Position numbers and translations under genes: made by a program. Shown in pieces: positions 3,029 to 53,505 of a stretch of 64,000 bases of DNA (positions are counted from its first letter, which is position 1; each line of letters begins with the position of its first letter). The DNA comes from Minisyncoccia bacterium. Lineage in GTDB: Bacteria > Patescibacteriota > Minisyncoccia > Phycocordibacterales > UBA9973. The stretch covers positions 946 through 64,945 of the forward strand of contig JBAQFC010000009.1 in assembly GCA_049287045.1 (NCBI GenBank). The letters are read 5' to 3'. The notes below the pieces were generated by a model, which searched no databases, was not told where the DNA came from, and worked only from the letters and a program-made list of their open reading frames with translations.

Positions 3029-4237
3029 CTAATTATTTAATAAATTAACTGCCTTCTCTAATTGTGGATCTTTTTTAAGTTCAGCGTCTTTTTGAGTATA
3101 TTCAACTTTATAATCCGGTGTTAATCCTTTTTCAGAGATTGAGTTACCTTTTGGTGTTAACCATTTTGCTACTGTTATCTTTAAAAGAGTATCTGGTGTT
3201 ATGTTTATTACTTCTTGTACTGATCCTTTTCCATAACTTTGTATTCCGACCAATTTTGCTTTTCCATAGTCTTGCATGGCACCAGCAAGAATTTCTGAAG
3301 CCGAAGCTGAACCACTATCCATTAATATCACAAACTTTAATTTATCAGTAAAAACATCATAACCAGCACTTCTATATTGTTTAGCTTTTTCACTATTTCC
3401 ATAATCTTCAGTAACAACAACTTTTCCTGATGGTAAGAACCAACTTGCCATACTTACGGCAGCATCAAGATACCCACCTGGGTTACCTCTTAGGTCAAGA
3501 AGCATTTTATCACTTTTTGAATCAGCAAACTTTTTTATAGCATCTCGGAAAAGATCAGCAGAAGTTGCAGAAAAGCTATAAAGTTTTATTACGAAAATTC
3601 CATCAGGACGTAGTTCAGTATCAAGTGTTGGTATATTGATGGTGTCACGTACTATTTTTATTTCCCTTGGTGCTTTTTCACCATCTCGAAAAATAGTAAG
3701 TGCAACTGTTGTACCTTTTTCACCACGAATAAGTTTTATTGCTTTTTCAATACTTAAATCGGAAGTTATTTTAGCATCAATTTTTAAAATTCTATCTCCA
3801 GGCTTGATATTTGCTTTGTACGCTGGAGTATCTTTAAGTGGAGCAATAACCGTCAGTATTTTATCTTTTATACCAACCTCCATTCCAACACCACTGAAAT
3901 TACCGGCAATATCATCTTGAAACATTTTTGCTTCTTCTGGGGCAAAGAATACGCTGTATGGGTCATTTAAAGAGCCTACAAGGCCTGAAATGGCTCCATA
4001 AACTCTATTTTGGTCAGTTATCTTGCTAGCGTTTGGTGACTTTTCATTTATTGTGTTCCATGCTTTCCAAAATGGTGAAAAATCCGCTTGAGTTGCAACT
4101 TCAGTTTCTTTTCCTAGGACGGATGCTTTACTTATCTCAGTGCGGTTATGGAATCCTATATAAATACCAAATGCAAAAAAAATTGCAACTAGTAAAATTA
4201 TTGAGCTATTTTTTCTTATTTTAAAATATTCAAACAT
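3029..4237 (-). CDS. Carboxyl-terminal processing protease (S41 peptidase with PDZ)
   Basis: GVGMEVG...KPGDRILKID (PDZ), LDLRGNPGGYLD, SGSASASEILAGA...YGKGSVQ (S41 motifs); N-terminal TM. Confidence 0.85.
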   Translation of the reverse strand: MFEYFKIRKNSSIILLVAIFFAFGIYIGFHNRTEISKASVLGKETEVATQADFSPFWKAWNTINEKSPNASKITDQNRVYGAISGLVGSLNDPYSVFFAPEEAKMFQDDIAGNFSGVGMEVGIKDKILTVIAPLKDTPAYKANIKPGDRILKIDAKITSDLSIEKAIKLIRGEKGTTVALTIFRDGEKAPREIKIVRDTINIPTLDTELRPDGIFVIKLYSFSATSADLFRDAIKKFADSKSDKMLLDLRGNPGGYLDAAVSMASWFLPSGKVVVTEDYGNSEKAKQYRSAGYDVFTDKLKFVILMDSGSASASEILAGAMQDYGKAKLVGIQSYGKGSVQEVINITPDTLLKITVAKWLTPKGNSISEKGLTPDYKVEYTQKDAELKKDPQLEKAVNLLNN

Positions 4238-6636: not shown

Positions 6637-7494
6637 CTAGAAGATCTTATGCCATATAAAACGGACAAGAAAGAAAACGATAATACTTAAAAGACTGTAA
6701 AATATGAGTTTATTATTAAAAATAGCTGAAGATAAAGTAAGAAAGAAAAGTTCTACATATTTAAATGGTTTTAAAAATTTACTTTTATTTAATTTGGATG
6801 TAGTACTATTTTCTACTGTGGTACCACCACTATCTAGTGTTTTAATTTCAGTTTTAGTTATTTCTTTTTTATTTGCTGAATTTGTGCCCATATATTCTCT
6901 GAATCCATCAATCGCACTTGCTGTCATTGATATAGGTTTAGCGATAAAATCAGGAGTTTTTTCGGCTATTAGTTTTTGAATATTTTGTATAGCTCCTATG
7001 CTTGAATTATCTGCGGTATTATCTGTATTAGAGTCAGGATTAGTAACTATTTTTATTATTTTTTCTACAGTACGTTCACTCTTTTCTGTTTCATTCTCGG
7101 TAAGAAGGATATCTTCATATTTTCCTTTTGATATTAAAAATTTAGCATTTTCAATCTTGCCATAAATTAAATGGTCACCAGCTGTCACTGTCCAATCGAT
7201 AAAAATATCTTTTACTCCATTTGCTGGCACTGTAAAATTTTTAGTACCTAGAAAGGTGGTTTTATCAAAAAAGATTACAGTACCCGAAATTTCTTTACTG
7301 TCTGGGTTGATAACTAGAGTATAAATTTTAATTTTATCACCATCTAGAAATGGGTCTTTAGAATATCTAATATTGGCAGATGCAAAGCCTACATTGGGTG
7401 AACTTTGTGCTTTAGCTATTCCACACAAAAATTTTACAGGGGCAAAAGAGATTAAAAGAATAAATAGGAATAAAATTATTTTTCTTTTTCGCAT
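6637..7494 (-). CDS. Hypothetical secreted/membrane-anchored protein
   Basis: N-terminal signal peptide, C-terminal TM helix; no recognised motifs. Confidence 0.4.
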   Translation of the reverse strand: MRKRKIILFLFILLISFAPVKFLCGIAKAQSSPNVGFASANIRYSKDPFLDGDKIKIYTLVINPDSKEISGTVIFFDKTTFLGTKNFTVPANGVKDIFIDWTVTAGDHLIYGKIENAKFLISKGKYEDILLTENETEKSERTVEKIIKIVTNPDSNTDNTADNSSIGAIQNIQKLIAEKTPDFIAKPISMTASAIDGFREYMGTNSANKKEITKTEIKTLDSGGTTVENSTTSKLNKSKFLKPFKYVELFFLTLSSAIFNNKLIFYSLLSIIVFFLVRFIWHKIF

Positions 7495-21903: not shown

Positions 21904-22107
21904 CTACAAACATTTGCAATTACTTTCTGCTTCTTTGCATTTTTTGCACTTTACTTGCACCATAGATTTTTCATTACATGCTTGAAAATGTAAAGGATTG
22001 TATTGCATTGTGGTGTATCCACACTTAGGGCATTTAAATCCATCACCTTCACCATGACAAGTACTGCAATTTTTGGGAGACAAATGTTTTGTTATGTTGT
22101 AAGCCAT
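21904..22107 (-). CDS. Small Cys-rich protein (11 Cys / 67 aa; rubredoxin/zinc-ribbon-like CxxC...CPxCG)
   Basis: CSTCHGEGDGFKCPKCG ... CKKCKEAESNCKC; 9-nt spacing from upstream peroxiredoxin stop. Confidence 0.45.
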   Translation of the reverse strand: MAYNITKHLSPKNCSTCHGEGDGFKCPKCGYTTMQYNPLHFQACNEKSMVQVKCKKCKEAESNCKCL

Positions 22108-22116
22108 ATATATAGT

Positions 22117-22680
22117 TTAAATTTTTCCAACCAAATCAATCCCTGGTGTTAATACCTCTTTTCCTGGCTCCCAGTTTGCGGGACAGACGTTTTCACTATG
22201 TTCTCTGACAAATTTAGCTGCTTGTAGTTTTCTTAACATTTCCTTTGCACTTCTGCCAATATTATTGGCATGTATTTCGATTGTTTTTAAAACTCCATCA
22301 GGATCAATAATAAATGTACCACGTAAAGATAAACCCTCAGCTTCAATATAAGTTCCAAACATCATTGATACACTTCCAGTCGGATCAGCTAACATTGGAT
22401 ATTGTATTTTACTTATGGTCGGTGAGCTATCATGCCACGCTTTATGAGCAAAGGCGGTATCAGTACTAATGCTCATTATCTCCCCTCCTAAATTTTTAAC
22501 TTCTTCATAATACGTAGATGCATCTTCTAATTCTGTCGGACAAACAAAAGTAAAATCAGCTGGGTAAAAAATCAAGATTACCCATTTACCCTTGTATTCA
22601 GAAAGTTTTATTTTCTTTATTTCATTATTTTGGTATGCATCTACTTCAAAATCAGGCACAATTGAATTTATATTTATCAT
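22117..22680 (-). CDS. 2-Cys peroxiredoxin (AhpC/Tsa family)
   Basis: FTFVCPTELE peroxidatic Cys motif, 187 aa. Confidence 0.85.
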   Translation of the reverse strand: MININSIVPDFEVDAYQNNEIKKIKLSEYKGKWVILIFYPADFTFVCPTELEDASTYYEEVKNLGGEIMSISTDTAFAHKAWHDSSPTISKIQYPMLADPTGSVSMMFGTYIEAEGLSLRGTFIIDPDGVLKTIEIHANNIGRSAKEMLRKLQAAKFVREHSENVCPANWEPGKEVLTPGIDLVGKI

Positions 22681-22696
22681 AATATGATTATATCAA

Positions 22697-23062
22697 TTAA
22701 AAACCTGAAGCACGAGTTACGCTATCTAGGTTGATTTGTTTAGAATCATCTTTGTCTTTTATTAATTCTTTTAGAAGAACATAAATATCCTGTAGCTCTG
22801 AATTAACTATTCGTGCTTCCAAAAATATTCCATCCTCATGAGGAGTCCTTTCTTTTGAAATAACTTTTTCTATTTTTAGAACTATTACTTCACTAAAGAA
22901 TGGTTTATAAATATTCAGCATATCCTCAATACTATATTTAGCAGTGTAAAGTTCATCTGATTTTAATAACTCCAAATTTCCCAATGTGAGCATTTTTCTT
23001 ACCTTCACAAAATGTGACATTAAATTTTCTACCAATTCCTTGTTTGTCATATAAGTACACAT
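22697..23062 (-). CDS. Hypothetical protein
   Basis: ORF 121 aa. Confidence 0.4.
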   Translation of the reverse strand: MCTYMTNKELVENLMSHFVKVRKMLTLGNLELLKSDELYTAKYSIEDMLNIYKPFFSEVIVLKIEKVISKERTPHEDGIFLEARIVNSELQDIYVLLKELIKDKDDSKQINLDSVTRASGF

Positions 23063-23210
23063 CTTAACATTTTAATTATGGAAATAGTAAATTTATATAT
23101 TTGACATACCTAGAACTATAAGCTATTGTATACATGAATCGTTTAACTTTGTTCCGTTAAATAAATTCCGAAAATTAACTAATTATTTAACCATTTAAAA
23201 TTAAAAAACT

Positions 23211-23486
23211 ATGGGAAATCTTATTTACCACTCATTGCCGTTTATTTTGGCTATCATTATCACTTTGTACACTATGTATCTATTTTTTACAAGAGGTATA
23301 ATTGTAAACGTAGTTGGGCTATTAATGTTAGCTTTCAATTTAACAATTTGGGGAGCCTGGTTTTTACCAAATGTCCCAAATAGTCCATTAACAATATGTA
23401 CAGTTCTTGTATTTACTGCATCAACAATTTTAATTTTTGTTATTGCTAAATATTTTATTGATGGCACGAAAAAAATTCAACAATAG
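23211..23486 (+). CDS. Small membrane protein (3 TM)
   Basis: ORF 91 aa hydrophobic; followed by terminator. Confidence 0.35.
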   Translation: MGNLIYHSLPFILAIIITLYTMYLFFTRGIIVNVVGLLMLAFNLTIWGAWFLPNVPNSPLTICTVLVFTASTILIFVIAKYFIDGTKKIQQ

Positions 23487-23498
23487 TATTTAATCATC

Positions 23499-23531
23499 AA
23501 AAAAAACACTTCAATCGAAGTGTTTTTTTTA
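23499..23531. terminator. Bidirectional terminator
   Basis: aaaaaaaacacttcaatcgaagtgtttttttt. Confidence 0.7.
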
Positions 23532-23564
23532 ATTTTAAATTAAAATCATACAACAATAAAAGAA

Positions 23565-24191
23565 TCAATTAAACGTTAAGGTGTGACGAATTTGATCAAA
23601 CTGATCTAAAAGTGCTTTTTCGTTAAATTGTTTTATTGTCCCCTCTGGATAGTTTTCAAGAACTCCATAATGAATAAAATAACGTACTGCTATACATGAG
23701 TTTGTTCCTGGAATTGCGTATATTTTTTCCTCGTATCTATTTCCTGCTGCTGCGCCGGTAGATGAAGCATACGAATAAGTCATATTTCCATCAATCAAAC
23801 TACTAGCTTTAGCTTGATCTAGAAAAAGATCCGCTGTGCAATTTTTACTCTGTTTGATATTTTCAATACTTATATATGAATCATTGCTTAGGTTTGTTCC
23901 ATCTGATATTGATTTTGGAATAGCAAATTTTATACCTTCTATGTCTTTGCCAGGTCCTAGCATTTGGTATTTATATGTATTATCAATAATAAAATTTTCT
24001 GGATATGTTACAGACATATGCAAAGCAATATCTGTATAAGTTTTGTATTGCGTCATTTCTAGTTTGATTGGCAAATAATATATATTTATTTTTCGCTCCC
24101 CTATCACAAAACCAACAAAAAAAGTTGAAACAAATAAAACAACCGCAAGCAGTTTAGAATACCAAGTTACTTTGTAAAATTCTATTTTCAT
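23565..24191 (-). CDS. Hypothetical membrane-anchored extracytoplasmic protein
   Basis: ORF 208 aa, N-terminal TM. Confidence 0.4.
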   Translation of the reverse strand: MKIEFYKVTWYSKLLAVVLFVSTFFVGFVIGERKINIYYLPIKLEMTQYKTYTDIALHMSVTYPENFIIDNTYKYQMLGPGKDIEGIKFAIPKSISDGTNLSNDSYISIENIKQSKNCTADLFLDQAKASSLIDGNMTYSYASSTGAAAGNRYEEKIYAIPGTNSCIAVRYFIHYGVLENYPEGTIKQFNEKALLDQFDQIRHTLTFN

Positions 24192-24285
24192 AAATTAATT
24201 ATACTACTTCTAAGTTTATACGTTCAATTTTAATTTAAAATAAAAAAACATCCCTTACAAAGAGATGCTTTTACTGACATTTTTA

Positions 24286-24873
24286 TCATATTTTTTTATT
24301 AGCTTGTGCCAAAAATAATTTATAGCTACAGTTTACAATCTTGTCATCCATGTATCCAGCATACCCATGTTGAAAGAACGTGATTCCTGTTGGATTAATC
24401 CAATACTGTGCAAAAAAATTTCTTGGATCGTTGTCGTCATTTTTATATACATCAACAAGAATAGATATTATCTTACTTTGATCATTTTTAAATGTATGAA
24501 AATGATGTATGTTATTCAGACTATCACGAAGAATATAATCGTGTTCTGTCCAAAAACGATATTCTCTTTCAGTAAAATCAGGAGTTCCATGTTTTTCAAC
24601 ATAGTTGGCTAGCCTGTTAAACTTTCTTTTACTCATTGCTAAGGTCGGTACAGATATTTCTTCTTTAGGATCTAAATAAAAATATTCATCCATAGATGTT
24701 GAAATATTTGTATTACTTGTTTGAGTAACTTGCGATTGTTTTACTTTATTAGAACAACTAACAAAGATAAAAATAAATAAAGTTAATACGAAAACTGAGA
24801 TTACATTTTTCATGATATATAGTTTTAATTGGGTTACCACAAACCCCTTATATTTAGGATCTTTGGTAACCAA
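24286..24873 (-). CDS. Putative lipoprotein (probable start at internal MKNVISVF..., lipobox FVSC)
   Basis: signal + L-x-x-C lipobox-like motif. Confidence 0.4.
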   Translation of the reverse strand: MVTKDPKYKGFVVTQLKLYIMKNVISVFVLTLFIFIFVSCSNKVKQSQVTQTSNTNISTSMDEYFYLDPKEEISVPTLAMSKRKFNRLANYVEKHGTPDFTEREYRFWTEHDYILRDSLNNIHHFHTFKNDQSKIISILVDVYKNDDNDPRNFFAQYWINPTGITFFQHGYAGYMDDKIVNCSYKLFLAQANKKI

Positions 24874-24945
24874 TCAAAACATTTTTAAGGAGCTAATTAA
24901 CTAACTTAAGTATAGCATAATTATATTAAAAAGTCAATAGATATA

Positions 24946-24963
24946 AACCTTATAAAATAAGGC
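24946..24963. repeat. Minimal R1-type hairpin CCTTAT-aaa-ATAAGG (followed by gcttata) upstream of bcp
   Basis: aaccttataaaataaggcttat; same stem arms as the long R1 elements. Confidence 0.4.
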
Positions 24964-25024
24964 TTATATAACTTATTAACTTTTTTCATATGGTACACAC
25001 ATATATAAGTGATATAGTTTATAT

Positions 25025-25474
25025 ATGCTCAAAGTAAAAACTCTAGCTCCAAATTTTAAACTTTTAGACCAAGATGGAAAGGAACATTCACTTGTTTACC
25101 ATCGTGGTTCTTATGTTCTTATTTATTTTTATCCCAAAGATGATACACCTGATTGTATAAAAGAAGCTTTCAGTATACGTGACTTATATAAGGATTTTAA
25201 AGCTAATGATATTAAAGTTTTTGGTATAAGTCCTGATTCAATAGAAAGTCATAAAAAATTTGCAGAAAAATATAATCTTCCATTCACTTTATTATCTGAC
25301 CCTGAAAAAAAAGTTATCCAAATGTATGAAGCAGATAGTATTATTTTCTGTAAACGAATTTCATATCTAATAGGCCCTGACGGAACGATAGAAAAAGTTT
25401 ATCCCAATGTAGACCCCGCTAAACATGGCATTGAAATACTTAACGACTTTTATGATTTACATTTTAAACGGTAA
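25025..25474 (+). CDS. bcp: Thiol peroxidase Bcp/PrxQ (peroxiredoxin)
   Basis: LIYFYPKDDTPDCIKEA matches Bcp FYPKDDTPGCT. Confidence 0.8.
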   Translation: MLKVKTLAPNFKLLDQDGKEHSLVYHRGSYVLIYFYPKDDTPDCIKEAFSIRDLYKDFKANDIKVFGISPDSIESHKKFAEKYNLPFTLLSDPEKKVIQMYEADSIIFCKRISYLIGPDGTIEKVYPNVDPAKHGIEILNDFYDLHFKR

Positions 25475-25507
25475 GAAAAAATATAAAATAGATGACAATG
25501 ATAGATT

Positions 25508-25975
25508 CTATTTATTTATCACTGTGACAATAGCCGATTCAAGTTTTGTTGGTTCATCAGTTCCGATTCGATAGATTTTTCCGTTCTTCATAATTAATTC
25601 AACCGCATCAAAACCTGAAACACTATATATCCACATTTTGGGCCACAGCCACAATTTTATTCCCCATCCATAATACCAATGATTCTTTACTGTTCTAACT
25701 GAAGCTATTTGATTAAGTGCGAACTTCCTGGTAAAAATTCCGTAACCAAATTTGATCCGGAGGTAGTTTTCATCAGTCGAAACCGTCAGCGTGGCAAACG
25801 ATGCAAGAATAAACACAATCAACACCATCACAGCAGTAACGAGAAAATTTGTGCCGGAGTCGACTGAAGGAGGTTCGGCCCTGGCCGTAAGATGAGCCCA
25901 TGTGAAAAACACCAGCACGGCTAGCGTAATAACCAGCATCAGATATCCAATTTGAGTGTGTTTATATGAAACCAT
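25508..25975 (-). CDS. Membrane protein with C-terminal bacterial PH-like domain (tentative)
   Basis: 2 TM then beta-rich ~90 aa region; weak resemblance to bPH_2. Confidence 0.35.
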   Translation of the reverse strand: MVSYKHTQIGYLMLVITLAVLVFFTWAHLTARAEPPSVDSGTNFLVTAVMVLIVFILASFATLTVSTDENYLRIKFGYGIFTRKFALNQIASVRTVKNHWYYGWGIKLWLWPKMWIYSVSGFDAVELIMKNGKIYRIGTDEPTKLESAIVTVINK

Positions 25976-26012
25976 AAATATATTATATCAAATAAAGTTA
26001 AAAATACGAGTT

Positions 26013-26067
26013 GACCTTATTGGACAATATTGGAGGCATTTTTAATGCAGAATGAGGTTTAAATATC
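26013..26067. repeat. R1 intergenic element copy A (gaccttattggac...ttggagg...tttttaat...gaggtttaaa)
   Basis: aligned by eye with copies at 26607, 27343, 28051. Confidence 0.55.
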
Positions 26068-26155
26068 TTATTTATATTTCTTTAACTTCAATAATATCTT
26101 GAGTGATAATCTTTGAAGAATATTAAGAATCAGAATGTTAAAATCTTTTTCATAA

Positions 26156-26560
26156 TTATTTATTTAGATAAGTTATAGTTAATTGTAATACTGTTGCAAA
26201 TGACACCCACAATAAATAAGGGATATTTATATAAACAACCCATCTAAGTTCTGGTAATGCATTCCAGACAACAAAAAGAGCCCATATAAGAGTTGTAAGA
26301 ACTAGAACAATATCAACAGCTGCAAGAAGATTATTTTTCAGCCCAAATTGGATGGGGGTAAAAGCTAAATTAAAAATAAGATTTAAAATAAAAGGTAATA
26401 CTATTATCCAAGAAAGTTTGGCATTAAAAGCCTTATAAAAAACTGCCCCAAAAGAAACAAAAATAATAGCGTATAAAAGAGTCCAAACAGGACCAAAAAT
26501 CCAGCTAGGTGGTGCCCAGGTAGGTTTGATTAGATGTTGATACCAATCATATGTGTTCAT
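26156..26560 (-). CDS. TspO/MBR-family tryptophan-rich membrane protein
   Basis: WYQHLIKPTWAPPSWIFGPVWTLLYAII matches TspO N-terminal signature (W..L.KP.W.PP...F.PVW..LY). Confidence 0.55.
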   Translation of the reverse strand: MNTYDWYQHLIKPTWAPPSWIFGPVWTLLYAIIFVSFGAVFYKAFNAKLSWIIVLPFILNLIFNLAFTPIQFGLKNNLLAAVDIVLVLTTLIWALFVVWNALPELRWVVYINIPYLLWVSFATVLQLTITYLNK

Positions 26561-26606
26561 AATAAAATTATATCATAGTTGATATCCGATATTTGGATTT
26601 AGTGCT

Positions 26607-26649
26607 AACCTTATGGGACGCTGTCGAATCTATTTTAATAAATAAACAA
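26607..26649. repeat. R1 intergenic element copy B
   Basis: aaccttatgggacgctgtcgaatctattttaataaataa. Confidence 0.5.
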
Positions 26650-26680
26650 TAAAAAAGGGCTTCACGTTACATGAAGCCCT
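26650..26680 (-). terminator. Rho-independent terminator
   Basis: gggcttcacgttacatgaagccc + T-run on minus. Confidence 0.65.
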
Positions 26681-26689
26681 TAATAAACA

Positions 26690-27193
26690 TTAATAAATTC
26701 TACGATGCTGTCGTATTGGTTTAGTCAATTCAATACCATCATCATAATGTCTGGAATTAAGATTTTTAATTTTTTCATAAAGCTTTTCGGAATTATATAA
26801 AACATCAACTGGTGATTCCTGATCTTTAAAAAGATGTCCGAATAAACCAACATAATCAGAATTTGTTTTCCCATAAAGTTTTATATAGGACTTAGTTTCA
26901 AGCGAGGAAAAAGAAATTAATCCACCCAAATACACATAAGAATATATAGGTAAATCTACAAAAACGATTGCTCCCGGATTATTATATTCAATCAAAACTT
27001 GATTGTTCTTTGTTTTAGTAATGCCATTTTCTGGTACATCAATAAGTTTGTAACAATTATAATTTGGGACGAACGAAAAGTGTATTGTTTCATCAAAAAT
27101 TAATAGTTTGTCACCCGCGAGAATATCCTTTACCTGTTTCTTGATTATAAAACTATTTGAATCAGGTAATAAGAAAGAATTTATTTTTTTCAT
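26690..27193 (-). CDS. Hypothetical protein
   Basis: ORF 167 aa. Confidence 0.4.
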   Translation of the reverse strand: MKKINSFLLPDSNSFIIKKQVKDILAGDKLLIFDETIHFSFVPNYNCYKLIDVPENGITKTKNNQVLIEYNNPGAIVFVDLPIYSYVYLGGLISFSSLETKSYIKLYGKTNSDYVGLFGHLFKDQESPVDVLYNSEKLYEKIKNLNSRHYDDGIELTKPIRQHRRIY

Positions 27194-27267
27194 ATTTTAT
27201 AGATTTAAATTGTTTAATTGATTGATTTACTTTATTCTCCATTTAGAAGCACAAGGTAAATCAATCA

Positions 27268-27437
27268 TTAACAAATAAACCAAATATCAAAGAGCTATTA
27301 TTGTTTGGATAATAGAGTATTTATATCAATATGTCAATTACTGACATTATGGGACAAAATTGAAACCTTTTTGATACAAAATAAGGCTTAAATTCAGTGC
27401 TGTTTGTCTAGTGCGACGTTGGAACATTTTTGAAATC
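27268..27437. repeat. Composite R2+R1 element (R2: aaataaaccaaatatcaaagagctattatt-hairpin-...tgtcaattactgaca; R1: gacattatgggac...ttgaaacctttttgat...aaaataaggcttaaa) plus partial second R1 core (cgacgttggaacatttttgaaatc)
   Basis: direct sequence comparison with 28768-28871 and other R1 copies. Confidence 0.55.
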
Positions 27438-27448
27438 TATTTAACTCT

Positions 27449-28018
27449 CTAACGTGATTCACCCTCAAAATCAGGCACGACAATCCCCCATTGCATTGTT
27501 GCTGGATTAAGTTTTAAATATGTACTTTTACCGACAGAAGGGATGGCCGTCATCGGTTCATTCGATTTACGTTCTGTATAGTTAACCACGATTACATTTT
27601 TATGCTGCGAATTAGGGCTAATTTCAGTAGTTTGCGGAGCTATCCTATCTCCCAATAAATATCCATCAGAGCCGGCGTATCCAGTGTCTGTTTTTAGAGC
27701 AGCCATAACATAAAAGAAAGTGCCTGAGCCACCGCTGTTCTGGGTGAGAAGAAAAACGACATCTTCTTGGCCATCATTGTTTAAGTCTGTTTTTAGTTCG
27801 TTACCAAAATATTGAGTGGTAAGCTTCGAAACAGAACCTGGTGTAATATCTGTTTGAGCGGCACCGTCTTGCAGTTTTATTTTTTTGCCTTCGATGACAT
27901 ACTCTATATTTTTGTAGCCAATTTCCACAACCGTTTGTTTGCGTACATAAGCATTTAACATAAAAAATCCGACAACAATAACAACAATCATCAGAAAAAA
28001 TAAAAAGGTTTTTTTCAT
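27449..28018 (-). CDS. Hypothetical secreted/membrane-anchored protein
   Basis: ORF 189 aa, N-terminal TM. Confidence 0.4.
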   Translation of the reverse strand: MKKTFLFFLMIVVIVVGFFMLNAYVRKQTVVEIGYKNIEYVIEGKKIKLQDGAAQTDITPGSVSKLTTQYFGNELKTDLNNDGQEDVVFLLTQNSGGSGTFFYVMAALKTDTGYAGSDGYLLGDRIAPQTTEISPNSQHKNVIVVNYTERKSNEPMTAIPSVGKSTYLKLNPATMQWGIVVPDFEGESR

Positions 28019-28024
28019 GTAAAC

Positions 28025-28033
28025 ATTATAGCA
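28025..28033 (-). promoter_or_regulatory. Extended -10 (TGcTATAAT) 6 nt upstream of ATG: leaderless-type promoter
   Basis: minus-strand reading cgTGCTATAATgtttacATG. Confidence 0.4.
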
Positions 28034-28050
28034 CGCAGGAACAATTTGCT

Positions 28051-28102
28051 GACCTTATGAGACGATGTAGGAAACTTTTTGATGGAAAATAAGACCTAAA
28101 CC
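28051..28102. repeat. R1 intergenic element copy D
   Basis: gaccttatgagacgatgtaggaaactttttgatggaaaataagacctaaacc. Confidence 0.55.
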
Positions 28103-28124
28103 CCATATCTTTCAATAAATCGAA

Positions 28125-28166
28125 TAAAAAAAGCCGTATCTTTAGAAAATCTCTAAGGATACGGCG
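28125..28166 (-). terminator. Rho-independent terminator
   Basis: gccgtatctttagaaaatctctaaggatacggc + T-run on minus. Confidence 0.6.
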
Positions 28167-28187
28167 TTCACTATTTGTATAGTGTAT

Positions 28188-28688
28188 TTATTTTGAAATA
28201 GTATAAGCAATTCCTGTATTACACGGTAATTGTTCTGATAAATCTAAGCCCGAATAGAAGTATTGATCTTCAATTTTTTTAAGGCAAATAGTTGTTAACC
28301 AATAACCTTGAGGGTCGTAACAAAGTTTACCGATTCTTGGTATTACAACTTGTTTAAAGTTACCAAAATTTAATTTTTCAAAATTATCAGCTATCAAACA
28401 GGCAATTTCAAAGTAAGGTTTCTCTAATTTAACATTTAAGAGTTTTTCAACTTTTTGTTTATTCATTGGCTTGATTATTATAATCTCAGTATCACCACGA
28501 AATGGTGAATTGAAATTATTGTCATTATTTAAAACAAATTCAAAGACCCCGTTATTATTACTAGATGTTTTCTTAGTAACAATATTGAAATGTTTATTTT
28601 TTAAATAATTCAGCCATTGTTTTCCAGACCTATCTTGTGGTTTAATTGTGAGACGAATAAATTCATCATTAGATTTAATACTATTCAT
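28188..28688 (-). CDS. Hypothetical protein
   Basis: ORF 166 aa. Confidence 0.4.
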   Translation of the reverse strand: MNSIKSNDEFIRLTIKPQDRSGKQWLNYLKNKHFNIVTKKTSSNNNGVFEFVLNNDNNFNSPFRGDTEIIIIKPMNKQKVEKLLNVKLEKPYFEIACLIADNFEKLNFGNFKQVVIPRIGKLCYDPQGYWLTTICLKKIEDQYFYSGLDLSEQLPCNTGIAYTISK

Positions 28689-28767
28689 TTTTATTTTTGA
28701 TTTAAATTAGTTTGCAATATTGCTCTGTAGAAATCAATAAATGACGTCCAGAGAGCAATACACAAAA

Positions 28768-28871
28768 AAATAACCAAATATATCAAAGAACTATTATTAC
28801 ATAAAATAATAGCATATTTTATTCATTTGTCAATTACTGGCAGTCTGGTATGAAGTTGGAACTTTAATGAC
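28768..28871. repeat. Composite R2 + partial R1 element (aaccaaatatatcaaagaactattattacataaaataatag...tgtcaattactggcagtctggtatgaagttggaactttaatgac)
   Basis: ~70% identical by eye to 27268-27345; internal 8-bp hairpin ctattatt/aataatag. Confidence 0.55.
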
Positions 28872-30120
28872 TAGCGAGAAGCTTTGTTAATTCAACTATT
28901 ATTCCTTGAGCAATAACATTGCCAGCAACTCCTTCAAATATAGTCTTTAGAGAAGTAAGGGTTGTTTTAATTTTTGATTGATTGGGTGTATCTTTATAAA
29001 TCTCCTTTTTTAATTCTATTGCTAGTGTTTCGATGTTTTCTTTTTCTTCTGTTCTAAGTTTTATTTTAGTAAGAAATTTTTGCATTTGACCGACTAGATC
29101 AATAACTTTTTCTTGAGAAAATCCATTTACTTGTTTAATAGAAACATACGCTTGGTCAGTAATACTTCCAATCGATCCTGCAAAATTTTCTATATGGCCA
29201 ATACTATATGATGATGATGATGTTTGTTGGACAAACATAGCAACAGAACCCTGTATATTTTTTAATGCTCTTTTAAGTTCAGAGACTGTAGTAATAATTC
29301 TTTTATCATCATTTTTTGTATTTGGGTCAAATATATATTCCATCAGTTCTATCGCTTCGGTAGTTTTTACAGGAAGTTCTTTTTTTATTTCGGGTAATGC
29401 TTTCTCAACTTCCTTTGTTTTTATTATTCTTGGCTCAAAAATAAAAGGTGAAGTAATAGTTTCAGAATCTACGTATACAGGTACATGATCAGAGATTTTT
29501 CCTAGAGAGATAGAACTATCCATAAGAACAGTCGCTCCATTTTTAAATATCTCACTGTCTGCAAGAATACTAAATTGATTTTGAACAGCTTGTCCGTATG
29601 CCAAAACTGTCGTTATGCTTTCTGACAACTTGATTACTTCGTTAGCTTTGATGTGGTATTCCGTAGCCAAACGAAGACTTGAAGTAACTGATGGGATGTT
29701 TATTCTATCTATCGCTTCTATAGTAAGTCTGCCGTGAGTTAGAGCTATAGCTGATGCCGATTCTATTGATTTGAGTAGCCCGTTATTTTCAGAAAATACT
29801 GATGCGACATTATTGACCCCAACCATAAAATTTCTGGCATCGCTGATAGTTTTTATTTTCATCTCCAAAAGATTTTCTCCTAGAGCATTTACTCCCAGTA
29901 CTCCTGCTTGTGTGGCGAGTGTGAGCGATTGATAATCACTCCTTGCGGTTATTCCTACTATATCTACAGTAGATGCTCCACAAGCCAGGTCCAAGGTACT
30001 CTTATAGCCAGTATTTACAAAACTATCAATAGACCTAGCAGTGCTTATATTCTTTGGGATTTTTATGACACTAGGGTCAGTTTCCTCATCGTTCTTCTTT
30101 TGTTCATTATTATCTGCCAT
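28864..30120 (-). CDS. Hypothetical protein (418 aa, no recognisable domain)
   Basis: long ORF with consistent codon usage. Confidence 0.45.
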   Translation of the reverse strand: MADNNEQKKNDEETDPSVIKIPKNISTARSIDSFVNTGYKSTLDLACGASTVDIVGITARSDYQSLTLATQAGVLGVNALGENLLEMKIKTISDARNFMVGVNNVASVFSENNGLLKSIESASAIALTHGRLTIEAIDRINIPSVTSSLRLATEYHIKANEVIKLSESITTVLAYGQAVQNQFSILADSEIFKNGATVLMDSSISLGKISDHVPVYVDSETITSPFIFEPRIIKTKEVEKALPEIKKELPVKTTEAIELMEYIFDPNTKNDDKRIITTVSELKRALKNIQGSVAMFVQQTSSSSYSIGHIENFAGSIGSITDQAYVSIKQVNGFSQEKVIDLVGQMQKFLTKIKLRTEEKENIETLAIELKKEIYKDTPNQSKIKTTLTSLKTIFEGVAGNVIAQGIIVELTKLLASH

Positions 30121-30230
30121 AGTAATTGTAATTTATGCTTAAAACATAGTGATTTTAGCATATTTTGCTTTGAAAATAAAGATTTTTTGTTATAGTTACA
30201 TTGTTTAGTCACAATAAAACACTTTTAACG

Positions 30231-30273
30231 TTTGATACGAAGTTGGAACCGTTTTATTGGAAAATAAGGATTA
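30231..30273. repeat. R1-related element copy F (gatacgaagttggaaccgttttattggaaaataaggattaa)
   Basis: shares ttggaac-N5-tt..t.g and aaaataagg with other copies. Confidence 0.45.
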
Positions 30274-30358
30274 ATTACCTTAAAATTTTTCTGTTTTAAT
30301 TTATCTGGTCATATTGAACTATCTTTTAGTTTTTATAAAAAAGAGTATACTTATAAAT

Positions 30359-30631
30359 ATGATTTATCTTATAACGTATGATTTAAATAAACCTGGAAAG
30401 GATTATAATTCTTTATATACAGCACTACGACAGTGTCAATACATAAGGGATACTGGATTAGATTCTGTCTGGTTTGTTTCTGTTGCGACATGGAATTCCA
30501 CACAAATTTATGAATATCTCCGTGTTCATCTTGATGTAAACGATAGACTTTTTATTACACAAATTACGCGTGGAACCAATTATGGCTGGATGAATAAAGA
30601 AGTCTGGGATTGGATTAACGCTCGTGTTTAA
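30359..30631 (+). CDS. VapD/Cas2-fold endoribonuclease-like protein (tentative)
   Basis: MIYLITYDLNKPGKDYNSLYTALRQCQYIRDTGLDSVWFVSV...NDRLFITQI aligns by eye with VapD (YALAFDL...DLRQEL...GSVYV...RDIRAFKV) and Cas2 (LVLVTYDV...SVFEC...DSLRIY); ORF track starts at 30314. Confidence 0.35.
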   Translation: MIYLITYDLNKPGKDYNSLYTALRQCQYIRDTGLDSVWFVSVATWNSTQIYEYLRVHLDVNDRLFITQITRGTNYGWMNKEVWDWINARV

Positions 30632-30640
30632 ATAAAAAAA

Positions 30641-31195
30641 TTAAACCATGTTGTAAGCAATTGTACGATAATCCATCACAAGAACATACGGTAATAGTTT
30701 GTATTTATCTTTAATTCTTTCATCTTTTGTAAGTATTGCTATTTTTTTCTTTTTATCTGTAAAATCATCCGCCATAACAAATATTGATATATCTCCAGAT
30801 TCTATTATAGGTTTTGCTTTATCAATTTGTTTACAAAAATCTATTTTAGATACTGAATATTCACTCATTCCTTCTAGTATCGGAAATACTTCTTCAACTA
30901 TGTCTTTGTAATCTAAACGATTATTATAATTTACTTCAAGATGGCGACATGTCTCAGTGAGAATATGTGGAGTAACGTAAAGCTTATTAAGATGTTGAGT
31001 TACATGTAGCAAATCAAATACAACATTAATTTGTTCGAATTCCGACAATATATCTAGTTTTTTTTTACTGATTCTTGTTTCAACTAAACCATTGATCAAT
31101 TCATAAAGAACACACGTGTCGATAATTATCCCATTTCTTAAAAAAGGTTCTATTGTTATACCGTAATCTTCTAGTCTTATATTATCTAAAGTCAT
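30641..31195 (-). CDS. PIN-domain (VapC-like) nuclease
   Basis: GIIIDTCVLYELI N-terminal PIN motif; start taken at MTLDNIRL (31195), 1 nt after stop of upstream ORF. Confidence 0.5.
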   Translation of the reverse strand: MTLDNIRLEDYGITIEPFLRNGIIIDTCVLYELINGLVETRISKKKLDILSEFEQINVVFDLLHVTQHLNKLYVTPHILTETCRHLEVNYNNRLDYKDIVEEVFPILEGMSEYSVSKIDFCKQIDKAKPIIESGDISIFVMADDFTDKKKKIAILTKDERIKDKYKLLPYVLVMDYRTIAYNMV

Positions 31196-31196
31196 T

Positions 31197-31559
31197 TTAA
31201 CTCTTCGAGAGTATTGGCGGTGTCGTTTTTTCTTCTGGGGTTGTGGCTGTATCAATTTTATTTTCAGCCCCTCCTTCTCCTTCTTCTGTAACAGTAAATT
31301 TTCTGTCAGGTTCATCTCCTCCAATTTTTTTTATAGACACTGTTTTATTTTCTGTATTTACTACTGCAATATATTTGCTAGGAGTTGGATTTCCTAGGTT
31401 CTCATAGAAACTGCAAGTTAAATTCCATATTTTAGAATCTGTACCTTCTACTGGAACTAGTTCCTCCACACTAAATTTTATTAAACCCAATTGTCCTTGG
31501 GCGCTAGAAAATGCAGCTCTTGCTAGTGTTATTGCTTCAACAGATAAAGAATCACTCAT
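31197..31559 (-). CDS. Hypothetical protein translationally coupled to PIN gene (possible cognate partner)
   Basis: 120 aa; stop codon abuts PIN start. Confidence 0.35.
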   Translation of the reverse strand: MSDSLSVEAITLARAAFSSAQGQLGLIKFSVEELVPVEGTDSKIWNLTCSFYENLGNPTPSKYIAVVNTENKTVSIKKIGGDEPDRKFTVTEEGEGGAENKIDTATTPEEKTTPPILSKS

Positions 31560-31647
31560 ACTTTTGATTATATCACATTATTATAATAATAAAATCCTTC
31601 AGTATTTTCCTTAATACATCCAGGAACAACGAACCTATTTCAAGTTT

Positions 31648-31665
31648 GCTGGGAGACATGGACTC
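31648..31665. repeat. 18-bp direct repeat of tRNA-Gln 3' end (gctgggagacatggactc): att-like
   Basis: identical 18-mer at 32050-32067. Confidence 0.6.
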
Positions 31666-31727
31666 CCTTCGGTAAACTCAGGGTTAACTCCATATCTAAA
31701 TCCAAATCTTATAGCACTTCAACATAC

Positions 31728-32015
31728 TCAGTGTAAGCCTTTCAGTTCTTCAAGACAAGTATTAATACCTAACTTACCATCAATGAGCATTTGCTTCTTT
31801 GTGCGACTCCATCTTTTTAATTGTTGTTCTCTTTTTGCTGCTAAATCCTTACTTTGATATTTTTCACAATATACAATTTTTATCTCAGAAAACTTTTTTG
31901 TAAAAAATGATTCTTTATTTATATGTTCAAACAACCTTCTTCTTAAATTATCAGTTATTCCGATGTAAAAAGTTTTCTGGTCGCAAAGAAGTATATAAGT
32001 AAAATGTTCTTTCAT
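31728..32015 (-). CDS. GIY-YIG nuclease family protein (UPF0213-like)
   Basis: FTYILLCDQKTFYIGITDNLRRRLFEH; ORF-track N-terminal extension is read-through of tRNA-Gln. Confidence 0.65.
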   Translation of the reverse strand: MKEHFTYILLCDQKTFYIGITDNLRRRLFEHINKESFFTKKFSEIKIVYCEKYQSKDLAAKREQQLKRWSRTKKQMLIDGKLGINTCLEELKGLH

Positions 32016-32050
32016 TATTACAAATCGTTTACACTGAGCCTGCCGAAGTG

Positions 32051-32121
32051 CTGGGAGACATGGACTCGAACCATGATTCACGGCTTCAAAGGCCGCTGTC
32101 CTACCATTAGACGATCTCCCA
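32051..32121 (-). tRNA. tRNA-Gln (anticodon UUG)
   Basis: Cloverleaf folded by hand: acceptor TGGGAGA/TCTCCCA, anticodon stem GCGGC/GCCGT, loop cuUUGaa, T-arm CATGG-TTCGAGT-CCATG. Confidence 0.8.
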
Positions 32122-48632: not shown

Positions 48633-49207
48633 TACTTCATTAACTCAATTTTTTCCAATATTTTTTGCAAATCATCAGCTAAAGGACTTTCGGGCCATTT
48701 AATTAAAAGTTCTTTTGCAACATTTTTATATACTTCCAAAGTTCTTTCTTTTGAAGCAAAAAATCTATCAAACATTTTATTTCCATCTTTATCAAAATCA
48801 TCTTTAATCTCAGAAACATTTGAAATAATATCACCTGACTTTAACATAACTGAATCATTGGAAAAGTTTTTAATATGTTCCAGAGCTTCCTTTTTTCTTT
48901 CTTCCCAAGTTAAAGATATTCCTTGTTCTGTAACACTGAGTACCAAGTCAGCAACATTTTGACCGAATTTTTCTGCTAGAATTTCTTTTGTGACTTTATT
49001 TGTTTCAATACTATCCTCAACAGTATCATGAAGTATTCCAGCTGAGACAAGGTCCTCATTTGCCCCTGCAGAAGCCAATATAAGCCCCACAGTGAGTGGA
49101 TGAGTGATATAAGGGATATCTTTACCTTTTCGCTTTTGCTTCTGGTCTAGCTCGTGGGTTTTGATGGCAAAAACTATCGCATCTTTTATTTTTTGTGTGT
49201 ATTTCAT
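48632..49207 (-). CDS. Stand-alone HD-domain protein (small alarmone hydrolase-like)
   Basis: YITHPLTVGLILASAGANEDLVSAGILHDTVED resembles Rel/SpoT hydrolase HD motif. Confidence 0.55.
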   Translation of the reverse strand: MKYTQKIKDAIVFAIKTHELDQKQKRKGKDIPYITHPLTVGLILASAGANEDLVSAGILHDTVEDSIETNKVTKEILAEKFGQNVADLVLSVTEQGISLTWEERKKEALEHIKNFSNDSVMLKSGDIISNVSEIKDDFDKDGNKMFDRFFASKERTLEVYKNVAKELLIKWPESPLADDLQKILEKIELMK

Positions 49208-49467
49208 AGCTTTTTAATAGGTACCTTTTTATTAATTAAATCTAACTTTTCATCCCTTGTTAACTGTTTAATTCGAGATTCTTCTTTAGAAGCAGTAGAC
49301 CGATTCCTAAATTTTTTAGAAAAGACTACTTTGACCGGCCGTCGAGCAGAGGTGTATTTTGCCCCAAGCTTTGTATTATTGTGTTCCAAAACTCTACGAT
49401 CTAAATCGGTAGTAATTCCAGTATATAGAGTTTTATCAGCACATTCAAGAATGTATAAGTAATACAT
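49204..49467 (-). CDS. GIY-YIG nuclease family protein (UPF0213)
   Basis: MYYLYILECADKTLYTGITTDLDRRVLEHN. Confidence 0.7.
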   Translation of the reverse strand: MYYLYILECADKTLYTGITTDLDRRVLEHNNTKLGAKYTSARRPVKVVFSKKFRNRSTASKEESRIKQLTRDEKLDLINKKVPIKKL

Positions 49468-53230: not shown

Positions 53231-53420
53231 TGCGGAATTAGATTCGCCCGCGAATAAACTTTTTTCGTCAAAAAAGTTTTTCTGGGCACCAGCTCATCTA
53301 TTTTTTCTACTGAAAAAATATGATTCCGCTGTTCGAACCTCACACAGACATGAAGCAGTTCATGTCCTCGCTCCGCAAATAAAAATGGCCCGACTTTCGT
53401 CGAGCTCATTTTTATTAATG

Positions 53421-53505
53421 CGGAGGCGGTGAGATTCGAACTCACGGTCCGGTAAGGGACGACGGTTTAGTAAACCGTTGATTTAAACCACTCATCCACG
53501 CCTCC
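53421..53505 (-). tRNA. Type II tRNA, Ser-like architecture; anticodon reads ACU (unusual A34)
   Basis: Hand fold: acceptor GGAGGCG/CGCCTCC, 3-bp D-stem GAT/ATC with GAGTGGTTTAA loop, anticodon stem ACGGT/ACCGT loop uuACUaa, 16-nt variable arm, T-arm GTGAG-TTCGAAT-CTCAC. Confidence 0.65.

Follow-up and report, generated by a model that had tools for sequence, protein, structure and literature searches.

A GIY-YIG nuclease cassette framed by inverted arms and a duplicated tRNA-Gln 3′ end, probably a mini-element that targets tRNA genes

A tRNA-Gln gene of a Minisyncoccia bacterium, located on the minus strand of the 64,000-nt stretch analysed here (positions 946 to 64,945 of contig JBAQFC010000009.1; hereafter, the window), is followed by a compact cassette in which one open reading frame (ORF) for a GIY-YIG nuclease lies between short inverted arms and ends at a second copy of the tRNA 3′ end. 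Read along the tRNA strand, the order is tRNA with repeat copy 1, left arm, 16 nt, ORF, inner right arm (R1), about 30 nt, terminal right arm (R2), repeat copy 2 and AAACTTGAAATAGGTTCG. The individual features are as follows.

32050–32121, minus strand: intact tRNA-Gln(UUG), found by ARAGORN and by Rfam (RF00005, 64.2 bits); its last 18 nt (32050–32067) belong to repeat copy 1.
32049–32067, minus strand: direct-repeat copy 1, 19 nt, GAGTCCATGTCTCCCAGCA, from T-loop position ~57 to 2 nt beyond the discriminator.
32029–32052, minus strand: left inverted-repeat arm, AGCACTTCGGCAGGCTCAGTGTAA, beginning at the tRNA 3′ end, with the conserved core CTTCGGCAGGCTCAGTG at 32032–32048.
31728–32015, minus strand: GIY-YIG nuclease ORF, 95 aa plus stop, SLX1/UPF0213 type, a stand-alone catalytic domain (Pfam PF01541).
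31713–31736, minus strand: inner right arm R1, TTACACTGAGTATGTTGAAGTGCT, overlapping the stop codon and pairing with the left arm.
31666–31683, minus strand: terminal right arm R2, CCCTGAGTTTACCGAAGG, which repeats the left-arm core in inverted orientation and abuts repeat copy 2.
31647–31665, minus strand: direct-repeat copy 2, 19 nt, read here as the original tRNA 3′ end, displaced.
31630–31647, minus strand: native tRNA-Gln trailer, AAACTTGAAATAGGTTCG, resembling the trailer behind an intact tRNA-Gln at locus L002 (AAACTTGAGCTAG) and those behind copy 2 at L162 and L166.

The final 18 nt of tRNA-Gln(UUG), GAGTCCATGTCTCCCAGC, occur exactly twice in the 64 kb searched, on the minus strand at 31648–31665 and 32050–32067, 402 nt apart, with 0.01 matches expected from shuffled sequence; the identity reaches 19 nt once the next base is counted (31647–31665 and 32049–32067). 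The exact duplication reported by the initial annotation is thus borne out by the window search, ARAGORN and Rfam, as is the bracketing of a single GIY-YIG ORF, for which 95 aa plus stop is the credible extent; what that annotation saw was the repeat bracket, but it overlooked the terminal inverted repeats inside it. The distal copies that it had envisaged at an island boundary are missing, no third copy being present in the window even with up to 3 mismatches allowed. An independent assembly, Logan contig L161, matches 1467 nt of the locus with 100% identity, and the tRNA, cassette and right end are all present alike in contig L180 from a sister species, so that the arrangement is real and no assembly artefact.

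The encoded protein matches PF01541 with 54.8 bits (gathering cut-off 22.6 bits, E = 1.2e-14) and carries no domain beyond the catalytic GIY-YIG domain in its 95 residues. Its sequence matches the UPF0213 structures 1YWL and 1ZG2 (PDB) with E values of about 5e-8, and a Foldseek search with the AlphaFold model (pLDDT, the predicted local distance difference test score, 82) ranks 1ZG2 and 1YWL first and SLX1 (4XLG, 6SEH) next, with far weaker fold matches to UvrC and I-TevI. The model for group I intron endonucleases, TIGR01453, reaches only 20.1 bits, below its cut-off of 56.05 bits, and the nuclease has no match in PHROG. Across 40 homologues the mean column identity is 65%; Y7 and H31 are kept in at least 90% of them and Y17, G19, R27, E51 and E63 are invariant, the conserved Tyr, Arg, His and Glu presumably having the catalytic roles of their counterparts in I-TevI and UvrC. 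Ratios of nonsynonymous to synonymous substitution rates (dN/dS) of 0.1–0.26, at dS >1 between elements at different tRNAs, point to purifying selection on the protein, and the non-coding left arm is near-invariant in spite of saturated synonymous sites; selection thus acts on the protein and on the ends alike. The wider protein family comprises 6196 clusters at 50% identity (E ≤ 1e-3). An alternative 117-aa ORF with a GTG start was rejected as an ORF-calling artefact, as its start extends back into the tRNA. Many database homologues (for example, P0028 and P0122–P0124) are annotated with 30–50 surplus N-terminal residues, as expected where gene callers run into the adjoining upstream tRNA, and these extensions look like a systematic gene-calling artefact of tRNA adjacency.

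The left arm, which reads ACTTCGGCAGGCTCAGTG on the tRNA strand from 32049 to 32032, and the terminal right arm form imperfect terminal inverted repeats that share the core TTCGRC-n3-5-GCTCA and adjoin both repeat copies. Together with the last three tRNA bases, the left arm also pairs with R1 over 23 positions (3 of them G-U/G-T), a stem that closes the minimum-energy fold of the cassette (predicted RNA, z = -4.4); in many homologues R1 is coding and provides a conserved C-terminus, CTE[FL]AE[AV]L. Terminal inverted repeats of 16–27 pairs are present in 17 of the 17 elements long enough to test. The 64-kb window contains no extra arm copies, and the cassette matches no Rfam family. Neither a promoter-like nor a terminator-like site was detected between the tRNA and the ORF, and the GIY gene is therefore probably read through from the tRNA promoter.

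Neighbouring genes include dus, dnaX and an ftsQ-like gene, and the best genome matches are Nomurabacteria/Paceibacterota metagenome-assembled genomes of the candidate phyla radiation (CPR, Patescibacteria), which places the host in that radiation. Relatives without the insertion, as the initial annotation had envisaged, do exist: L001 and L007, whose DnaX is 78–79% identical, keep dus-dnaX-tRNA-Gln with no GIY gene there and share nothing with the window beyond the tRNA, where synteny stops. At L001, the closest relative, the tRNA-Gln (7066–7137) is opposite in orientation to dnaX, unlike in the window and L007, a local inversion at the synteny break. Behind the intact tRNA-Gln of L002, L001 and L007 comes AAACTTGAGC or AAAA; in the window, AAACTTGA follows copy 2 and the left arm follows copy 1, and trailers similar to that of the window follow copy 2 at L162 and L166. 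This comparison identifies copy 2 and its AAACTTGAAATAGG trailer as the original tRNA end, and the cassette with copy 1 as the insertion. The sister species (L180) shares both the cassette and its tRNA location with the window: the tRNA, the left arm and the first ~240 nt of the ORF, like the first ~300 nt of the cassette, are 99–100% identical, as compared with ~92% nt identity in dnaX. An exact-protein look-up for an empty allele matched the 120-aa neighbour to L161 alone, which represents the same genome, and found no record for DnaX.

The association with tRNA genes extends far beyond this locus, related cassettes being found at many other tRNA genes of CPR bacteria. A metagenome scan with the cassette protein yielded 80 loci, 71 of which offered at least 200 nt of upstream sequence and were counted: a co-oriented tRNA lies within 400 nt upstream of the homologue in 33 of the 71, and a downstream tRNA, or one on the opposite strand, in none. 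Where homologues are at least 47% identical, the 3′ end of the host tRNA reappears 40–100 nt after the ORF, with longest exact shared runs of 11–19 nt, against 5–8 nt in upstream controls. These close homologues sit behind tRNA-Gln, tRNA-Asn and tRNA-Glu, and the duplicated sequence is in each case the host tRNA's own 3′ segment, which rules out an attachment (att) core carried by the element. The duplicated piece, 17–19 nt long, runs from tRNA position ~57–59, just past the T-loop TTCRA, to 1–3 nt beyond the discriminator; this matches a putative target duplication of fixed geometry, corresponding in essence to the coaxial acceptor/T-arm helix on its 3′ strand, with a few bases to either side.

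All close homologues carry the same arms, with the same core, abutting the duplication. A TTCGGC subfamily encompasses the window, L081, L084, L086, L087 and the loci of proteins P0006 and P0089, and a TTCGAC subfamily encompasses L088–L093, L099, L100 and L124; the G/A difference, scored by reading, matches between the left and the terminal right arm in 15 of the 16 distinct elements. Members of the TTCGGC subfamily occur at Gln, Asn and Glu tRNAs, and thus targets have switched. Across 841 kb of unrelated loci the end motif occurs 5 times, never beside a tRNA.

Several loci display variations on this layout. Identical cassettes with the same copy 2 but at least five different downstream flanks are found at L162–L169 (identical protein P0006) and L170–L179 (P0089); the flanks diverge right after copy 2 and include genes with HEPN_AbiV and DUF5343 Pfam hits. 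The left flank at L162–L164, L168 and L169 is a short sequence with a T-arm-like hairpin and no tRNA-Gln, which suggests recombination between element copies, and at L170–L179 copy 1 has decayed and the cassette abuts no intact tRNA. L165 presents a GIY-tRNA-Gln-GIY arrangement. At L084, straight after copy 2 (3346–3395), stands a second, ORF-less arm pair (ACTTCGGCAGG-TTTAT-CCTGAATTAATCGAAGG-ACTCAGTG) that resembles what an earlier insertion at this tRNA-Asn would leave behind. L145 (2581–3268) contains a 333-bp unit of a tRNA and a 39%-identical GIY gene, repeated 2.1 times in tandem at 97% identity, and according to ARAGORN its tRNA copies differ in anticodon (Met CAT, Leu TAA).

We consider it fairly likely that the cassette is a selfish, nuclease-driven mini-element of about 400 bp that targets tRNA 3′ ends, a reading that upholds the initial suggestion of a tiny GIY-YIG mobile cassette at a tRNA 3′ end and generalises it to the whole family. 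The element would consist of the left arm, the GIY-YIG ORF and the right arm or arms, bounded by inverted copies of a conserved 17–24-nt motif; its insertion into the 3′ portion of tRNA-Gln would duplicate the segment from the T-loop (position ~57) to 1–2 nt beyond the discriminator, copy 1 completing a functional tRNA and copy 2 representing the displaced original end with the native trailer still behind it. The SLX1-like nuclease, probably structure-selective, may recognise the tRNA gene by its T-loop box or by the acceptor/T-arm architecture; there is a resemblance between the T-loop TTCGA and the arm ends TTCGAC/GTCGAA. Two staggered nicks placed hypothetically ~18 bp apart, one in the T-loop and one just past the 3′ end, would allow host repair or replication to copy or ligate the cassette between overhangs that both retain the 18-nt segment, yielding the duplication, and the flanking repeats of the donor copy could act as short homology for both overhangs. 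The evidence would fit homing-like copying and cut-and-paste transfer alike. Transposon-like traits are present in the form of terminal inverted repeats and a target-site duplication of characteristic length (17–19 nt); the products include no transposase from the known classes (DDE, HUH, serine, tyrosine or Cas1), only the hydrolytic GIY-YIG nuclease.

Several observations weigh against a mini-element of this kind. No pair of empty and filled sites is available at near-identical sequence, the relatives without the cassette being just 78–79% identical in DnaX, and the saturation of synonymous sites between elements at different tRNAs means that there is no sign of recent jumping. The 64-kb window holds a single cassette copy, and in some relatives copy 2 has decayed, its divergence accounting for the shorter exact runs at L081, L084, L086 and L092. 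The protein is a 95-aa catalytic domain with no evident DNA-binding or joining function, and GIY-YIG enzymes are not known to act as transposases. The strong purifying selection would equally fit a host-beneficial role. Finally, the end motif is widespread where no GIY gene accompanies it, so that the arms could serve something else.

This last point bears on a rival view in which the GIY gene is a passenger and the arms are a palindrome family, similar to repetitive extragenic palindromic (REP) sequences or miniature inverted-repeat transposable elements, moved or maintained by another enzyme or a host process; the nuclease might then be, for instance, a structure-specific enzyme acting on hairpins, a domesticated partner comparable to the REP-associated tyrosine transposases (RAYTs), or a toxin. 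In its favour, the left-arm motif CTTCGACAAGCTCAGGG has at least 131 exact matches in IMG/VR viral contigs, mostly GC-rich; none adjoins a tRNA, no GIY ORF follows any of them within 200 nt downstream, and only 1 of 120 viral motif loci (L294) contains any GIY homologue, a distant one. Many of these matches are stand-alone hairpins with both arms in swapped order, CCGTTCG-TGGTGAGCCTGTCGAACCAT...CC-CTTCGACAAGCTCAGGG-CGAACGG (viral contigs L181, L189, L193, L208, L210, L216 and L221 are examples). Furthermore, at L122 (1160–1843) and L123 a GIY gene of 44% identity is enclosed by a palindrome of this family in reverse topology, with 35-nt arms that are 94% complementary and two further nested arm pairs; on its right side, the L122 locus has a 21-nt tandem array of the arm that recalls the REP clusters around RAYT genes. 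No member of the cassette's GIY clade was found in the viral contigs searched, and annotated phage records contain homologues of only 34–38% identity. The stand-alone hairpins match no Rfam family, and no description of the arm or hairpin motif was found in the searchable literature, incomplete as that is. The possibility that the hairpins are circle junctions of the cassette was rejected, their outer flanks CCGTTCG/CGAACGG being unlike the cassette interior. The arms are thus part of a larger family of repeats, with an unproven link to GIY nucleases. By contrast, within the clade of at least 47% identity the arms flank almost every GIY gene and co-vary with the GIY subfamily, the window has no further arm copies, and the cassette offers no other candidate enzyme. 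On balance, we regard a passenger role as rather unlikely.

Less probable still is that the gene is a resident of tRNA metabolism and that the partial tRNA copy and inverted repeats are RNA-level signals for processing, stability or termination. A reported protein in which a prokaryotic Slx1-like domain is fused with a TrmH tRNA methylase (PMC1564403) would be in keeping with such a role, as would the predicted stem of left arm and R1 that encloses the ORF, the lack of a promoter or terminator in the tRNA–ORF interval and the strong purifying selection on the protein. However, the gene is missing at this tRNA in close relatives, the host tRNA varies among family members, copy 2 decays in several lineages and arm pairs at L084 are tandem or ORF-less. 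The idea of RNA-specific selection on the arms was likewise dropped: sense and antisense duplex energies are similar, with no consistent asymmetry, and hence indicate nothing specifically RNA.

Integrase-mediated islands have the duplicated tRNA 3′ end as their classic signature, and the initial annotation had framed the repeat as an att-like scar, possibly the proximal edge of an island extending to about 23.5 kb. The repeats as attL/attR of a cis-mobilisable remnant or such an island would fit that signature, the end of synteny with relatives at the tRNA and the identical elements elsewhere whose different flanks, with HEPN_AbiV and DUF5343 genes, diverge right after copy 2, but we judge this highly improbable, given that no integrase or recombinase was found between the repeats or among 14 ORFs tested downstream of the tRNA, that inverted arms are foreign to att sites, and that one cassette subfamily is flanked at Gln, Asn and Glu tRNAs by the host's own sequence, of which an element-borne att core cannot be the source. 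Of the proposed island boundary, the end of synteny at the tRNA stands, but the repeat, which the window contains only twice even when up to 3 mismatches are tolerated, gives it no support.

The region downstream of the tRNA (22000–31600), which has no synteny to the closest relatives, consists mostly of unannotated ORFs and includes a weak PIN-like protein (30641–31324), TspO and two peroxiredoxins; the C-terminus of a 418-aa protein (28864–30120) weakly matches AbiTi/PDC-M14B defence models in PADLOC. A second GIY-YIG gene of the window (49204–49467, minus strand), of UPF0213 type, encodes 87 aa with 36% identity to the cassette protein and is operon-packed, with overlapping stops and starts; its neighbours are a membrane-like ORF of 65 aa and an HD-domain-like gene. 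The initial annotation had raised the prospect of a repeat beside this gene as well; none is there, nor is any tRNA, arm or terminal motif, and the gene looks like a resident paralogue. In a distant member of Parcubacteria (L006:9144–9592), a GIY-YIG gene of another clade (43% identity) lies ~115 nt after a tRNA-Gln, and neither a tRNA-end repeat nor the arm motif was found at that locus. The window also contains, at 53420–53505 on the minus strand, a tRNA-Ser for which ARAGORN gives the anticodon ACU (A at position 34), with a regular cloverleaf and 57 bits in Rfam; bacterial tRNA-Ser for AGY codons normally carries GCU.

No description of tRNA-linked, repeat-bounded GIY cassettes was found in the searchable literature, itself incomplete. 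If the cassette is truly a mobile element, a concrete function, self-propagation at tRNA genes, would be at hand for one clade of the UPF0213/Slx1-like family, which is widespread and annotated merely as "GIY-YIG nuclease family protein". It would also be a minimal mobile element, with one 95-aa nuclease and two short arms, a long structure-defined duplication and no transposase. The recurrent annotation artefact of GIY ORFs with N-termini running into tRNA genes would be accounted for, the 3′ ends of tRNA-Gln, tRNA-Asn and tRNA-Glu would be hot spots of insertion and rearrangement in CPR genomes, and a small nuclease that recognises tRNA-gene architecture would be of interest to builders of targeting tools. 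A bolder proposal, doubtful but conceivable, is that stand-alone SLX1/UPF0213-type GIY-YIG nucleases are the engine of an unrecognised class of prokaryotic mobile DNA, mini-cassettes with a conserved palindromic repeat at their ends, in which a structure-selective nuclease and host repair, in place of a transposase or integrase, would generate the ~18-bp duplication on insertion at the acceptor/T-arm segment of tRNA genes, and widespread hairpins of the 'VVSLSNH / PFDKLRANG' type would be ORF-less relatives, by analogy with REPINs (hairpin-forming REP doublets) and RAYTs.

Known systems each match some features of the cassette and none the full combination, be they homing genes, integrase islands, casposons or REP/RAYT systems. 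Its protein agrees in size, sequence family and fold with the stand-alone UPF0213/Slx1-like proteins (1YWL, 1ZG2), to which E. coli YhbQ also belongs. That group was described as a minimal GIY-YIG domain devoid of auxiliary domains (Dunin-Horkawicz et al. 2006, PMC1564403), and no report of its members as repeat-bounded cassettes at tRNA genes was found in the searchable literature. GIY-YIG-encoding insertions unlike group I/II introns are on record from the rRNA genes of CPR bacteria (Tsurumaki et al. 2024, PMC11270868); they share with the cassette the CPR host, a structured RNA gene as location and a GIY-YIG product, but they lie inside rRNA genes, and tRNA targets, direct repeats and terminal arms are unreported there (PMC11270868).

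The tRNA islands and prophages of tyrosine integrases have in common with the cassette the entry into the 3′ part of the gene, the duplicated 3′ end and the preserved tRNA; the cassette differs in having no integrase, a target-derived and host-specific repeat of fixed length (17–19 nt) and inverted terminal arms. The Seg and Mob genes of T4 are free-standing GIY-YIG homing endonuclease genes of phages, with SegB located in the T4 tRNA gene cluster. Similar to the cassette, they are selfish GIY-YIG nuclease genes between genes and by tRNA genes, presumably spread via cuts that the host repairs. However, their enzymes comprise ~200–270 aa with a C-terminal DNA-binding domain, whereas the cassette protein is a bare 95-aa domain of the SLX1 lineage, and they have neither the target duplication nor the inverted terminal repeats of the cassette.

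REP/REPIN-RAYT systems resemble the cassette in that an enzyme gene lies between inverted short palindromes that also stand alone elsewhere. Yet RAYTs are HUH tyrosine transposases, whereas the cassette enzyme is of the GIY-YIG type and its stand-alone hairpins are seen in unrelated viral contigs, with none in the window; no description of a GIY-YIG partner for REP-like repeats was found in the searchable literature. Casposons, which are driven by Cas1, have terminal inverted repeats and 14–15-bp target duplications and are in some cases inserted at tRNA 3′ ends, share with the cassette the terminal inverted repeats, the long target duplication and the preference for tRNA-gene ends. By contrast, they span 8–20 kb and encode the Cas1 integrase together with a PolB polymerase, whereas the cassette, at ~400 bp, encodes a hydrolytic nuclease alone.

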